From: Chlamydiia bacterium
Lineage (GTDB): Bacteria; Chlamydiota; Chlamydiia; Chlamydiales; Rhabdochlamydiaceae
NCBI GenBank assembly: GCA_963804085.1
Contig: CAWDOQ010000019.1
Coordinates: forward strand, 315,403 to 379,402
Length of the DNA: 64,000 bases
Reading direction: 5' to 3'
In this document: positions 53,701-59,700 of the stretch, one piece after another
Layout of the letters: the number at the start of each line of letters is the position of its first letter
Position numbering within the stretch: the first letter of the stretch is position 1
Program-made: the position numbers

Positions 53701-56700
53701 TTTAGAAAAACACTTTCGCCTCACGCCAACTGCGGTAGAAAAGGCGCTTCAAGTCAGGCCCTCCTGTAGGTTCGAAAAGGTTGGCCCTGTTCTTTTAGAT
53801 GGAGCACACAATCCTGACGGTTTTATCCGCCTCTTTGAAGCGATCGACCTCTTTTTTCCCCATCGGAAGCTGCATGTGGCTATAGGCATGTGCAGAGATA
53901 AAGAGTATGCAAACTGCTTAAAAATCGTAAAAAAACGAGCGGAGAGGATCCTCCTTTTACAAGCAAATTCGCCACGGGCAGCGACGGTTGATGAGTTAAA
54001 ACAGGCACTTGTCGGATATGAGAATTGGACGTATGGGGAGACAATAAAAGAAGCAGTGCAAAGAGCAATCGATGCTCAAGCACTGCTTCTCGTCTGCGGA
54101 AGCTTCTTCCTTATGAAAGAGGCGAGATACGCCTTAGGCGATCAAGCGCCCCAAGATTCATATGATCTCTCGGAAAAGAGCTCTTTTTCATCCGCTCCCT
54201 TGCCACCAGATACCTCCTCTAATCCACTGTAGAATGAGGAGAGCTCCTCTTCCACACAGACCGGCTTTCCCCCGCGGGAGAGCTCCATCGATGTGGCATA
54301 GAGAGCCGGTGCATAGAAGTGGTCGTGCGCGCCGCTTTGCAAGAGCTCTTCAACCCTTTCCTTGTAGTGGTCTACACGGCGGAGAAGGTTAGCGGGCAGC
54401 TTATCCATCTTGCGCTTTGCGCCAGGAAGCTGTCCCTGCTCATAGAGCTCGGCGATCTCCAAGAGCTCCATCAAAAGCTCAGCAGAGGGGGCATCTAGCT
54501 CCTCCTGCTTAAAGTGGGCTTGAGCTGCAATCTTTTGCAGACCGGAAGCGCTCTCAGGATGACTCTCCCAAGAAGCTGGCGCCTCGTTAATAAATTTTTC
54601 CACTTTTTTGATGAACTCTTCTATTGCGGCGATCCGCATCGTGCTATCTCCCAGCCTGTAGGTGCTGCATAGAGTAGAGATCTGATCTCTTAAACTATGG
54701 ACCTTTTGAGCTACGGAGGTTAACTCGCTACCTAGTATTGAATTTTTGAAACCTTCCGCCTCATCTGTGATCTCTAACACTTGCGCATTAAGAGCGCCAG
54801 TGATGATATCCCCATAAAATGTGCGGCCTTTCTCTTCAATTTTATCTAGGCGATTGATCAGCTCATCTCCAAAATCTTTTAAGAAACGGGCATCCTCTTG
54901 CAACTTTTTCAGAGGCAGGAGAGCCTTATCCAGATCTCGGAATAACTGATCGTATTGAGAAGAAGGTAGAGTCTGATTGAGTGCATTTTCTACGTTTTGC
55001 ACCTCTTTCTCCACCTGTTCTAACTGTGCGTTCAGCTGCTGAAAGCAGTTGAACACATCGTAATGAACGATGTTGGTCATATAGTTTCCTCATATTTATT
55101 ATTTATTACGTTTATTTTATATTTATTAAATACACTACTACTACACATACACATTTTACGCCGTTTGTTATTTAACCAACAACCATACAAATTTATTTAA
55201 TCGAGCAATCCCACTACGCCTTCAAAACTCCCAAATATGCCTGGGTGGATAAATTGTAAATTAAATTAATTTCTTAACGATGTGTAGGGAGGGGGATAGG
55301 GGGCGCTCTTCGGGTGGAAAGTGAGAATCGATTTTCCACTCTAAAGAATTTAGTTGATAAAGGAGGGGGAGAAGAGCTTCTTGCTCTCGCGCTCCTTCTT
55401 TATGACCGGGGTAGCAGGTGAGGCTTATCATTCCATCTGGCGACAGAATAGATAAAGATTTTTTTAAACTTTCGACCGTCGATTCCATAACTGTGGTTCT
55501 GCTCTTATCGCCTCCCGGGAGGTACCCCAAATTATAGACGATCAGTTTGGGAGGGGTCTTATAGGCAATGGGGGGTTGCTCTGCATGCGACTGCAAAAAT
55601 AAAAATATTTTTTTATAGTGTTCGGGGGAGAGGTGGGCTTTTAGGTGGGCTCTGGTTTTCGCGATAGCCTCCTCTTGGATGTCTAAACCGATGATACACC
55701 CCTCAATGCCCACTAGCTGGGCCAGCTTGAGTGTGTCCTTCCCATTGCCGCATGTTGCATCCAAAGCGCTGTCCCCTTGCTTTAGGTGCTTTTCCCAGTA
55801 TTTGTGTGCTAGTTGTAGGTGCATGCATAGATTATGCATTTATTGGGGAACGGTACAACCTCTCTTCTTCTTTATCGCGCCCGCTTCCGCGCCCGCATGC
55901 GCGCCCGATCCGGATTAATTCGGGTGCGCATGCGGGCGCGGAAGCGGGCGCGTCGAGAAAAGAATTGGCAGCTCTCATCTTGCTCCTTGCAGCAATTGGG
56001 TCCACATAGTATGATCTTTTTGTTTAAAAAACGGGATATTAGCTCAGTTGGTTAGAGCGCCACGTTGACATCGTGGAGGTCGGCTGTTCGAGTCAGCTAT
56101 ATCCCACCATTTATTATAAGAAGGAATGATACTAGAGCTTGAAGATTTACGGATTCATGTGGCACATCTTGCCTCTGCATCCGTCAGAGAACTGTTTCCT
56201 GATGCGGTCTTTATAGCTTCTTACACACATCCCAACGGTTTTTTCTGCGACTTTGCCTTTCCCTTTTCTTTTAAACAGGAGTTCTTGCCGCTCATTGAAG
56301 AAAAAATGCGCAAGATTGTGAAAGAGAAGCGTCCGGTCAAAATGAAAGAGATGGTGCCTGTGTCTGCGGCAGCATTCTTGGAGAGCAAGGGTTTAGATTC
56401 AGAGAGCGTGCGTCATTCGGAAGAGACACTTGTTCAACTTTTGGAGATGGGCGCATTTATTGCTCCCTGTCCTCCCACCAACTCTCTTTTTAATGACACG
56501 GGAGAGATCAGCTCCTCTTTTCGAATGCTCGCGTTTGAAGAGCGCGTTGTGACGCGTTTGGAGGGCACCGCTTTTCCAGATAAAGATAGTCTTAAAAAGT
56601 TTTTGAAGAGAAGCGCAAACTTTGAGACGAAAGATCACGAGAAGCTTGGAAGTGAGCTCTCTTTATTTTCTCAAACACCAGAAGGGGAGTGGGTCTTTCA

Positions 56701-59700
56701 TCCGAAAGGAGAGGCCCTACGCAAGCAGCTCCTAGACTTTTGGAGAGAGCAGCACGCGCATCAAAATTTTGCATTTCTTCACACCCCACCCCCGACAACC
56801 GACCTTTCTCTTACGTCGGCTCATTGCAACTATTTCTTGCAATTTCCACACAATTTACTAGCGGAACACGCGCGCCTCTCCTCCGATGATTCCTCCTCGT
56901 GGGAGCGAGGACTTCTCACTTCCTCATACGACACAATCGACCGTGCACATATTTTTTGTGAGGAGGGGGAGGTTCAAGATAAGTGTATTTCTTCCTTGCA
57001 ATTCATCGTAAAAATCCTTAAAATCCTGCGTTTTAAGTTTGAGCTAGTCTTGTGCGCATCTGGCGAGACCGATCCTCTTTACAAAAAGGGAGAGACGGCA
57101 TTGCAAGAGGCGCTAATAGCTTGCGACTTAAAGTGGCTTTCGAAAAGATCTGCGGTTTCGCATGCAGGTCCGCGCATAGAGGTGCGCATAGAAGATGCAT
57201 TAGGCCTTAAGTGGCCCGCTTCTTTTTTGGAAGTCGCTTGCAAGGAGACAGCTCGGTTACGTATTAAAAAAACGCTGCTCGTGCGTTCGCTATATGGCTC
57301 CTTGGAGCGTTTTATAGCACTGCTTTTGGAAGAGAGTGAGGGAGCGCTCCCTTTCTTGTTTGCTCCGGAGCAGGTGCGTGTGCTGAGCGTTGGAGTAAAG
57401 CAAGAGGGTTACGCGGCTCAAGTTTGCGAGACTCTTCGGAAGGCCGGTTTTCGAGCTAGCTTCGATTCCAGAAGAGAGGAGAAGCTAGGCATGCGCCTCC
57501 ACGAGGGTTTAAAAGAGAAGATTCCCTATCTTGCCGTCATCGGCGAGAGGGAAGAGCAGCAAAAGCTTGTGACTGTGCGCGCCTTCCCGAAAGTTGAGGG
57601 AGAGGCGATAGATTTAGAAGAATGGATAGTGAACCTTAAGACAGAGAGCAACATTGAGAATCAATAGAGAGATTCGTGCCCCGAAAGTACGGGTGATCGA
57701 CAAGGATGGCGGCCAGCTAGGAGTGCTGCTTCTTGGAGAGGCCCTCATGAAAGCTGAGATGGCTGGACTGGACCTAATCGAGATTTCGGCAAGTTCCGAT
57801 CCTCCGGTCTGCAAGATCATCGACTATGGTAAGTTCCGTTACCAGCAGACGAAGAAAGAAAAAGAGAGCAAAAAGTCGCAGCATCAAGTGAAGGTCAAAG
57901 AGGTCAAGATTAAGCCGAATACGGACGAGCATGACCTCATGACAAAATTAAAACATGCGCGTGACTTCATCGAAAAAGGCAATAAGGTTCGCATCACTTG
58001 TGTCTTCCGTGGAAGAGAGATGATGCATGCCGAGTATGGAATGAAAGTGGTCCGCCGTCTTTGCTCCGAGCTGAGTGATATTGCGACAGCAGAGGCTCCG
58101 CCGAAGATGTTTGGAAAGTTGTTATCTGTAGTGCTGGCTCCAGGAGCCAAAAAGAAAATTGTTAATGGGCAATCGTAAGGAGTAGGACTCATGCCAAAAA
58201 TGAAAAGCAGTAAGGCTGTTGCCGCAAGATTTAAAGTTACGGGGACGGGCAAGCTAATGCGTAATCGTCCGGGCCGTAGACACATTTTGACAAAGAAGTC
58301 TCGTAACCGCAAACGACACTTGAAAAAACAGATGCTCGTTCATGACGGACAGACAAAGATGTATGCACGCATGATGTGCGTAGTAAAGTAGAAAAACAGG
58401 AGAAGAGTCATGACAAGAGTCACAAATGCTGTGGCCGCAAACCGCGCGAGAAAGAGACTTCTTAAACGCGCAAAAGGGTTTGTAGGAGATCGTAAAAATC
58501 ACACGAAACTCTCTGCAGATGCTGTGTTATCCGCAATGGCGTTTAACTACCGCCACCGCAAAGAGAAGAAACGTGATTTTCGCAAACTCTGGGTAATGCG
58601 TATAGGAGTCGGAGCAAAGATCAATGGGCTTTCTTATAGCAAGCTTATCAGTGGTCTTAAAAAAGCAAAATGCGATATCAATCGCAAGATGCTCTCCGAA
58701 ATGGCCATGCGCGATCCAGAAGCATTTGCTTCGATTGCGGGAGCTGCTAAACAAGCACTCGCCACGTAATAATTGTGGAAAAAAAGGTAACCGCTCTAAG
58801 ACTTGCCTTTCAAAGTGAGCTCAAAGGTGTCAAGCATACGCGCGACGTCGATGAGCTCAAGGTAAAGTATTTGGGCAAAAAAGGGCCCATCCAAGAGCTG
58901 ATGCTCGAGCTGCGCCACGCCACAAAAGAAGAGCGGCCCCTGCTAGGCAAGATGATCAACGATCTCAAAGAGGAGGTCGAACGTCTTTGCACGCAAGCAT
59001 CTCAAGGTTTACATGAGATCGAAATTAAGGAGCGCCTCGCGCAAGAGAAGATCGATGTCACTCTACCAGGCCGAAGCGCATATCTAGGAAGAAAACACCC
59101 CATCACACTCCTTTTCGAAGAGGTGATCGATATCCTGTCCGGCATGGGCTTTTCCGTGCAGTACGGGCCAGATATCGATTCTGACTACTACAACTTCGAA
59201 GGGCTGAACTTTTCTAAGGACCACCCTGCACGCGATATGCAGGACACCTTTTATATCACGCCAGAACTGCTTCTGCGCACCCACACCTCCAACACACAGC
59301 TCCGCGTGATGGAAACGCACAAGCCGCCCATTCGCATCATTGCCCCCGGCAAGGTCTACCGCAACGAAGATATCAGCGCGCGTTCCCACGTATTCTTTCA
59401 CCAGCTAGAAGGCCTCTATGTCGATGAGGGAGTCTCCTTTGCAGATCTCCTCTCCACCATGCATGACTTTTGGAGCAAACTCTTTAAGCGCGACGTCGAA
59501 ACACGCTTCCGTCCCAGCTACTTTCCTTTCGTAGAACCCGGCCTCGAGATCGACATCCGCTGCACAGCATGCGAAGGATCCGGCTGCCGCCTCTGCAAAC
59601 AGAGCGGCTGGCTAGAAGTCGCCGGCGCCGGCATGGTCCACCCCGAAGTCCTCAAAAACGGCGGCATCGACCCAGAGATCTACACCGGCTACGCCTGGGG

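Follow-up and report, generated by a model that had tools for sequence, protein, structure and literature searches.

Gene organization of the locus

The window analysed here is a 64,000-nt stretch of a contig from a Chlamydiia bacterium of the Rhabdochlamydiaceae. On its plus strand a 513-amino-acid ORF with an ATG start (56126..57667) lies between tRNA-Val(GAC) (56033..56109, located with ARAGORN), behind which it begins after 17 nt, and infC, the gene for IF3 (57654..58178). infC was recognized by ORF translation and a domain match; its TTG start at 57654 lies inside the 3′ end of the ORF, giving an overlap of 14 nt. Three further translated frames on the same strand, which we take from sequence likeness to be rpmI (58191-58391), rplT (58410-58769) and pheS (58775-59794), follow. 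By profile, fold and residue alignment the ORF encodes a ThrRS-derived pseudo-enzyme without a TGS domain.

A total of 132 copies of the ORF were compared, with working ThrRS reference sets of 61, 57 or 20 sequences. tRNA-Val(GAC) stands in the same place before 128/132 copies, and in 84/132 the infC start is no more than 30 nt from the end of the ORF or overlapped by it. No Shine-Dalgarno signal was found before the ORF in 98% of 126 copies. A TTGACA in the anticodon loop of tRNA-Val was rejected as a promoter, having no −10 box at 16–18 nt. Some database entries for the copies are wrongly labelled ‘threonyl-tRNA synthetase’, and the label ‘Parachlamydiaceae bacterium’ also occurs among them. 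In the Atlas, a single 127-member ‘hypothetical protein’ cluster, mostly from Chlamydiota, gave no functional lead.

Predicted fold and loss of active site residues

The ORF matched TIGR00418 with 214.8 bits, under the curated cut-off of 383.65. Its AF2 model (pLDDT 93.6, pTM 0.90) had ThrRS structures as top Foldseek matches (E 1e-38). The product is thus modelled as a ThrRS fold encoded by an intact gene, as an earlier survey of the genome had proposed. Fold and the order N2-core-anticodon domain are shared with bacterial ThrRS (TIGR00418; E. coli 1qf6, S. aureus 1nyq), whereas the ORF lacks their zinc, ATP, threonine and editing residues, has largely deleted the zinc loop, dimer hairpin and acceptor-stem hairpin, treats the anticodon domain as optional and is itself dispensable.

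The N2 (former editing) domain (56132..56578), with its editing residues mostly gone, is found in 130/132 copies. The residual class II core (56633..57352), delimited by residue alignment, has mostly lost the zinc loop and dimer hairpin (E. coli ~301-345); across the family it retains DxLGRxW, motif 3 SLER and the W/G/P of motif 1 (W266 in 78%, G270 in 86% and P296 in 61% of copies). The anticodon-binding domain (57353..57646; PF03129, E 2e-15) occurs in only 67/132 copies. The acceptor-stem hairpin is gone from the family, and with a median pI of 6.4 the family is not basic.

C334, H385 and H511, which we take to be the zinc ligands, and R363, presumably the motif-2 residue, are invariant in 20 working chlamydial ThrRS. 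Among the 132 copies C334 is retained in 3, H511 in 4, R363 in 10 and H385 in 41, the present ORF being one of these last. No copy has more than two of the four, and 130/132 have at most one. F379, Q479 and Q484 are lost as well. The survey had reported the loss of the zinc and motif-2 residues from an alignment of divergent sequences; an alignment-free search found none of the motifs MNCP, HRxE and HRA in 132/132 copies. Judged from these residues, the product is catalytically dead and would lack aminoacylation.

A family-specific motif in the N2 domain

Codon-level comparison revealed a motif in N2, EMxxxNA-x5-H-x2-Q-x3-A (E. coli 138-157), located at 56348..56401 on the plus strand. The present ORF has a weak version, EMVPVSA, with S for N143 and H150 missing. 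Among the copies M139 occurs in 127/132, N143 in 102/132, H150 in 77/132 and A157 in 93/132; none of these is typical of 61 working ThrRS, in which Met is outside the four commonest residues at position 139. Synonymous positions of the motif codons are unconstrained, and on this evidence the motif is constrained as protein, not as DNA. M139 might, however, pack in the protein interior and not lie at the surface. An internal start at this conserved Met was ruled out, the preceding codon showing no bias.

A promoter-like element within the ORF

The best conserved ‘peptide’ of the ORF, ISSLQF, coincides with a sigma66-type promoter-like element, ATTTCTTCC (56987..57024, plus strand), detected by synonymous-codon constraint. 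It consists of a −35 TTGCAA (56996-57001), a spacer of 17 nt and a −10 TAAAAT (57019-57024), and sits ~630 nt upstream of infC. This DNA motif is the strongest conservation anywhere in the ORF; it was found in 108/132 copies vs 2/57 working thrS, and it survives in some genomes from which the ORF is deleted. The pattern of constraint indicates that ISSLQF is conserved as DNA, a sigma66-like promoter posing as a peptide. A generic promoter scan alone was not significant (1 found vs 1.4 expected), so the case for a promoter rests on conservation. The TTGC/TTGA columns of our weight matrix are circular, because its 113 sites were picked for those letters, while the codon test is free of such selection. 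A TTGA-like −35, a TANNNT −10, a fixed spacer and A/T-rich stretches are given for the chlamydial sigma66 promoter in the excerpted text of PMC3333780, and the sequence of the element has all of these.

E. coli thrS likewise has infC promoters, P0 and P0′, inside its coding sequence, as far as the excerpt of PMC6511841 goes; unlike that gene, the ORF is dead and its predicted promoter motif has overwritten the peptide. In E. coli thrS, TTAACG-17-TATGAT lies 11 nt upstream of the equivalent site and is at most a candidate for P0′.

Distribution, losses and selection

The ORF is an open frame in 33/35 chlamydial families sampled, which agrees with the survey's finding that it is kept before infC in many families. 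The survey's 24 of 24 loci hold for that position; as a rate they are inflated, because the loci were picked by the gene itself. When loci were anchored on infC, the ORF was present at 102/135 and missing at 33/135. Losses in environmental families, which the survey had missed, account for most of these: 26/33 ORF-less loci fall outside the Chlamydiaceae-like family, and losses of the ORF occurred in at least 8 families (f3, f4, f7, f9, f12, f17, f27 and f31). Absence from Chlamydiaceae was borne out in f4, taken to be that family on account of its genus structure and genome size: the ORF was at none of 7/7 infC loci read, and a profile search of 29/29 genomes had no copy among the matches listed, where the same search had 5/8 divergent control ORFs among the matches listed. 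Apparent relocated copies in G191 and G146 were N-terminal halves of true thrS at contig ends.

The copies form a size series from ~590 aa (nearly whole) through about 305 aa (minimal) to deletion with the promoter left. Clean deletions occur; some keep the promoter alone and others bring tRNA-Val next to infC. In a few genomes (G087, G047, G033, G195 and G057) the copy is broken or split. dN/dS was 0.12-0.26 in 40/44 pairs with a finite value (families f1, f6, f7, f9, f11 and f15), and pN/pS was 0.2-0.45 in every segment of the ORF, including N2 upstream of the promoter. These rates indicate that the encoded protein is under selection, and the pattern of losses that the ORF is dispensable. 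Any benefit would be modest, because the ORF was lost in at least 8 families.

Origin of the ORF

The survey had called the ORF a paralog. An origin by duplication from the working chlamydial thrS (an in-paralog) was rejected (AU p=2.5e-5), which makes a displaced native gene the more likely origin. A clade of the ORF with PVC-type thrS was neither rejected (AU p=0.49) nor shown, and the ORF sits on a long branch. In our tree, sampled without Verrucomicrobiae, Planctomycetota and Omnitrophota, the ORF and PVC-type enzymes belong to one group with a support of 99. The closest build is that of the TGS-less ThrRS of ~575 aa in Kiritimatiellota and Lentisphaerota, whose genes stand likewise before infC at 61/78 loci and after tRNA-Val(GAC) at 14/78. 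Gene order and the TGS-less build fit a native PVC-type thrS, and most likely the ORF is the native chlamydial thrS, displaced by an imported one. In the ancestor of the Chlamydiae, tRNA-Val(GAC), a TGS-less thrS and infC would have followed one another. The thrS with a TGS domain that now adjoins parA would have come in from outside and taken over aminoacylation, and the native gene would have lost both active sites.

The working thrS (C17:28658-30574) lies elsewhere, as the survey had it; it adjoins a plasmid-type parA and carries a TGS domain. In the present assembly it has two frameshifts, which had gone unnoticed. They are probably assembly errors, because a ~96% identical contig from another run has neither. 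An indel check of the assembly found 1/11 genes broken, thrS itself, a sample too small for a rate. Two thrS-like genes in one bacterium are also found in Anabaena (T1/T2), both active according to the relevant part of PMC9437257, unlike the dead product of the ORF.

Possible present role

We tentatively favour, as a reading that falls just short of probable, a non-catalytic binding protein that uses its N2 domain in an accessory role. In cis, sequence conservation suggests that the ORF carries the sigma66 promoter of infC-rpmI-rplT-pheS. In trans, the ORF would be read at low level from the tRNA-Val transcript, without a Shine-Dalgarno signal, and would yield a stably folded protein that is no enzyme. 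The helical part of N2, with the EMxxxNA..H..Q motif, would most likely be its working surface, carried by the residual core as a scaffold. The product is not basic, its acceptor-stem hairpin is lost and its anticodon domain is often lost, which argues against ordinary tRNA binding; its target would most likely be some part of the translation machinery, either protein or RNA, and its role that of a helpful and dispensable accessory. Its fate may be likened to that of mitoribosomal mL39, a derivative of the N-terminal part of ThrRS that is a fixed ribosomal protein. Both reuse ThrRS N2 without catalysis, although the match is weak (E about 1.2) and mL39 is without the core domain, which the ORF product retains.

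The product might instead be a dead subunit that forms a dimer with the working ThrRS via motif 1 and modulates how active or stable that enzyme is, in the manner of SLIMP; we consider this unlikely. The motif 1 residues are largely retained, and a heterodimer model of the G025 pair, in which the dead copy is the least eroded one and the ThrRS comes from the same genome, scored 0.85, against 0.01 for the best of 3 controls. The score mark used was reached by 116/157 solved complexes and 2/215 mismatched pairs; at least 94% of contacts agreed between runs, with a partner pLDDT of at least 86. However, such a result can stem from likeness to solved ThrRS homodimers. Conservation at the modelled interface (mean 0.20) does not exceed that of the remaining core (0.26; p=0.10), and ~80-90% of copies, including the present one, have lost the interface hairpin (E. 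coli 317-329). SLIMP, as the relevant passages of PMC10570016 and PMC9437257 describe it, is a dead SerRS paralog of animal mitochondria and, like the ORF product, a class II synthetase fold with an ablated active site kept by selection. It is a required half of a heterodimer whose partner has lost a domain, whereas the working ThrRS here is most likely of foreign origin and, in genomes with the dead copy and in those that lack it, complete in its parts for catalysis, editing and tRNA binding; unlike SLIMP, the dead copy is often lost.

Slightly less likely again is a relic that acts in cis only, retained for its internal promoter and for the help that a translated frame from tRNA-Val to infC would give to read-through or coupling, where constraint on amino acids would merely avoid misfolding. 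The prominence of the DNA motif, the closeness to infC, the missing Shine-Dalgarno signal and the progressive erosion with many losses all fit. Deletion is open to these genomes, however, because genomes with the ORF deleted exist; 102/135 loci nonetheless retain it. Keeping the promoter does not by itself call for an ORF, because some clean deletions keep the promoter only. Moreover, the 150-aa N2 lies upstream of the promoter, persists in nearly every copy and has gained a near-invariant residue.

Residual or new chemistry appears distinctly improbable, whether the product were to edit Ser-tRNA(Thr) in trans or to bind nucleotides and serve as a sensor or, like HisZ, as a regulatory subunit. 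R520 is retained in 95/132 copies, D382 in 87/132, D180 in 71/132 and C182 in 48/132. Yet the editing ligands H73/H77/C182/H186 are complete in 0/132 copies, 117/132 having one or none, and K156 is found in 10/132 copies vs 61/61 working enzymes. The hallmarks of a free-standing editing factor of AlaX or ThrRS-N2 type (HxxxH, CxxxH, K156 and D180) were not found as a set, R363, F379, Q479 and Q484 are lost, and the editing site of the working ThrRS is intact. HisZ, the regulatory subunit of HisG in the excerpt of PMC9437257, is likewise a bacterial, non-catalytic class II synthetase derivative; it has a partner enzyme, while none is linked to the ORF.

A neutral pseudogene or assembly artefact, to which the few broken copies might point, is very improbable, because dN/dS is near 0.2, well below 1, in several independent families; the widely open frame and the confident fold speak against it too.

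Implications

The survey had also passed over the fact that the editing residues are lost, that about half the copies have no anticodon domain any more and that a promoter-like signal lies inside the ORF. No dead bacterial ThrRS of this kind was found described in the literature searched. A further reading, possible but rather doubtful, is that the ORF product is a phylum-wide bacterial pseudo-synthetase that arose by xenologous displacement, was kept for about a billion years and became a new translation-associated factor through a new N2 surface, in bacteria the equivalent of mL39 or SLIMP. It would be translated from the end of a tRNA precursor, where there is hardly any leader and a Shine-Dalgarno signal is missing. 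If so, its synthesis could be tied to tRNA processing or to IF3 levels.

The dead synthetase derivatives HisZ, SLIMP and mL39 each proved to do something unexpected. Displaced essential genes normally vanish; what is most likely a displaced thrS has instead been kept, apparently under selection, in nearly all chlamydial families sampled. The family offers a natural series from a nearly whole gene to a deleted one with its promoter left, and the ORF would show clearly how a promoter can pass for a conserved peptide motif.

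Locus and fold of the ThrRS-derived ORF

The ThrRS-derived ORF (the dead copy) lies at 56126-57667 on the plus strand, 17 nt behind tRNA-Val(GAC), and encodes 513 amino acid residues with a 14-nt overlap with the TTG of infC. Its TIGR00418 match scored under the cut-off, and PDB ThrRS chains matched it at E 2e-44. The AlphaFold model (family alignment, 50 rows) had a pLDDT of 93.6 and a pTM of 0.90, and the top Foldseek matches were ThrRS, in agreement with the survey's finding of an intact ThrRS-fold gene directly before infC. The survey had also placed the working thrS elsewhere, at C17:28658-30574 of the source genome, G000. 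A second, TGS-bearing thrS (L167) is indeed found there, and it carries two single-base frameshifts in the assembly. These are probably assembly errors, because a ∼96% identical contig from another run has compensating indels at both places and so lacks the frameshifts. A nearby dapA-like gene (C17:23535-24475) is likewise split.

The tRNA methyltransferase gene mnmM (55261-55839; NF053511 above cut-off) is divergent from tRNA-Val. Between them is a GC-rich palindromic element of ∼85 nt (55871-55955; fold −82 kcal/mol), which recurs as 170 blast pieces at ∼98 places of G000 and forms a REP- or MITE-like family. The region 59837-64000 contains tRNA-Ser(TGA), then a minus-strand gene for a large serine recombinase (59910-61643) and, beyond it, a small HTH-like ORF with broken restriction-subunit-like fragments; it probably represents an integrated element. 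The tRNA-Ser(TGA) end is partly repeated on the small contigs C1 and C3.

Loss of catalytic residues and domains

The residues that we take to form the ThrRS active site (E. coli numbering) were invariant in 20 working chlamydial ThrRS. Among 132 dead copies, the synthetic-site residues were retained as follows: C334 in 3, R363 in 10, D383 in 1, H385 in 41, Q479 in 6 and H511 in 4. No copy had more than two of C334, R363, H385 and H511, and the zinc and motif-2 losses reported by the survey hold in this larger set. Editing residues were similarly depleted (H73 in 11, H77 in 13, K156 in 10, H186 in 21), with all four editing ligands (H73, H77, C182 and H186) together in none of the 132, and an alignment-free search of these copies detected no signature motifs. 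TGS is absent, since all dead copies begin at about E. coli residue 60-77. The former editing domain, N2, was retained in 130 copies and the anticodon domain in 67; segment 301-345 was mostly gone in 70, and R520 was kept in 95. In three copies (L029, L164 and L115, from G057, G079 and G223) the frame ends ∼200-250 nt short of infC, and a short ORF remains in two of these; loss of the anticodon domain seems to be under way there.

Distribution across chlamydiae

infC was used as the anchor so that counting did not rest on the dead copy itself. It was found in 139 of 140 chosen genomes, and the upstream DNA of 135 was taken, four with contig-edge or split hits being excluded. Thirty further loci were joined to these. 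A family profile, built on the 45 longest ORFs, picked out 132 copies and left out three ORFs (G069, G084, G087). The dead copy was present in 102 of the 135 infC-anchored loci and absent from 33 (kin are not independent), and occurred in 33 of 35 families. It was missing from f4 (0/7 with a copy), f27 (0/1) and parts of f3 (8/11), f7 (11/23), f9, f12, f17 and f31. Loss was mostly a clean deletion that leaves tRNA-Val 27-416 nt before infC. A profile search of 62 genomes, which listed 5 of 8 divergent controls, gave no relocated copy among the matches listed (70 weaker ones aside), whether in the genomes lacking the ORF or in the f4 genomes (29 of 29). We infer from genome sizes that f4 is Chlamydiaceae, which would bear out the absence from that family claimed earlier. 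The slot holds a 353-aa frame unrecognised by the profile in G069 (L034) and an unrelated 644-aa ORF, with no tRNA-Val, in G084 (L078); both have a promoter-like site ∼50 nt upstream of infC.

Origin of the dead copy and of the working thrS

Working ThrRS of Kiritimatiellota, Lentisphaerota and other phyla are ∼565-600 aa long, many without TGS; infC lies ≤300 nt away at 61 of 78 such loci, and tRNA-Val(GAC) lies upstream at 14. A tree of 39 sequences (LG+C20 PMSF, quick search) included the 6 least eroded of the 132 dead copies and outgroups drawn from two pattern-limited scans. The dead copies formed one long-branched clade within a group that also holds those enzymes of Kiritimatiellota, Lentisphaerota and other phyla (SH-aLRT 99), and working chlamydial ThrRS were nested among DPANN, Desulfobacterota and Patescibacteria (97-99), with Bacillota next. 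A single clade of dead and working chlamydial copies was rejected (p-AU 2.5e-5), which speaks against the survey's paralog in the sense of a duplicate of the working thrS; a clade of dead and PVC copies was not rejected (p-AU 0.49). The dead copy is probably the displaced native thrS.

parA stands behind the working thrS at 21 of 27 chlamydial loci versus 0 of 156 non-chlamydial loci. At L336 and L337 the gene usually behind parA follows thrS without parA, and at L349 and L176 neither follows. Chlamydial chromosomal parA is reported to be of plasmid origin and to have been there already in the last common ancestor of chlamydiae (PMC7846284, in which 'threon' does not occur). Our guess is that the new thrS arrived on the parA-donating plasmid.

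Expression signals and embedded promoter-like element

A median of 10 nt separates the tRNA from the first in-frame ATG (98 of 128 loci). A Shine-Dalgarno signal precedes 2% of 126 dead copies versus 33% of 625 long G000 ORFs; the comparison genes gave 100% (25 rplT) and 17% (18 working thrS). The dead copy may be translated at a low level, or from a short leader once the tRNA is processed. The infC codon matching the start in the window is TTG at 120 of 165 loci, TTA at 15 and CTG at 10; a non-AUG infC start is expected from IF3 autoregulation.

Within the ORF, the codons of ISSLQFIxK are almost fixed: TTG in 114/119 Leu (background 0.20), TCC in 73/75 (0.16), TTC in 77/83 (0.22), CAA in 76/77 and ATT in 85/86, the strongest bias of 257 columns. 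The DNA, ATTTCTTCC-TTGCAA-N17-TAAAAT (TTGCAA to TAAAAT at 56996-57024), matches the C. pneumoniae sigma66 consensus (PMC3333780). In 108 of 132 dead copies it falls at one and the same column, versus 2 of 57 working thrS, for which a looser pattern was used. The element persists in 5 of 33 gene-less loci (G242, G087, G166, G046 and G039; scores 18-38) and, weaker, in four more; the site ranked second genome-wide in G000 scored 17.2. E. coli infC is likewise transcribed from promoters within thrS (PMC6511841). We infer that the embedded element may have promoter activity.

Selection and possible role

In N2, synonymous codons are free in the motif EMxxxNA-x5-H-x2-Q-x3-A, where the constraint is on the protein. 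Of 132 dead copies, 127 carry M139 and 102 carry N143; at these positions the 61 working enzymes compared show V/L/I/F and, for the most part, E, respectively. Because N2 is almost always kept and has gained new conserved residues, we tentatively favour a role in which the dead copy would be a non-catalytic binder acting via N2.

Pairing of the dead copy with the working ThrRS is a less probable reading. The modelled G025 dead copy and its own ThrRS scored 0.85 against 0.01 for the best control, with contact agreement of at least 94% and partner pLDDT of at least 86; 116 of 157 solved pairs attain the score mark, as do 2 of 215 mismatched ones. However, this pass may stem from likeness to the ThrRS homodimer, interface positions were not conserved above the rest of the core (0.20 versus 0.26, p=0.10), the interface hairpin 317-329 is filled in just 10-19% of copies, the copy in the window retains 39 of 49 modelled interface positions, and the working ThrRS is complete, with no part lacking.

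Nei-Gojobori dN/dS was 0.12-0.26 in 40 of 44 pairs with unsaturated dS (six families; many pairs share genomes), and uncorrected pN/pS was 0.2-0.45 in all segments (15 disjoint pairs, pooled). Both ratios indicate that the protein is under constraint, which for most of these pairs is weaker than on IF3. A relic serving in cis only ranks just below pairing with ThrRS and is unlikely. Residual chemistry is improbable given the residue counts, and neutral decay is very improbable.

Searches of open-access papers yielded no description of a dead ThrRS gene before infC, which may nevertheless be mentioned in some genome paper or a table. A review of duplicated synthetases (PMC9437257) gives just T2 and ThrRS-L for ThrRS and does not mention chlamydiae. 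SLIMP is a dead SerRS paralog of animal mitochondria (PMC10570016). The old, so far undescribed chlamydial family of ThrRS-derived non-enzymes, with its embedded promoter-like element, is real.
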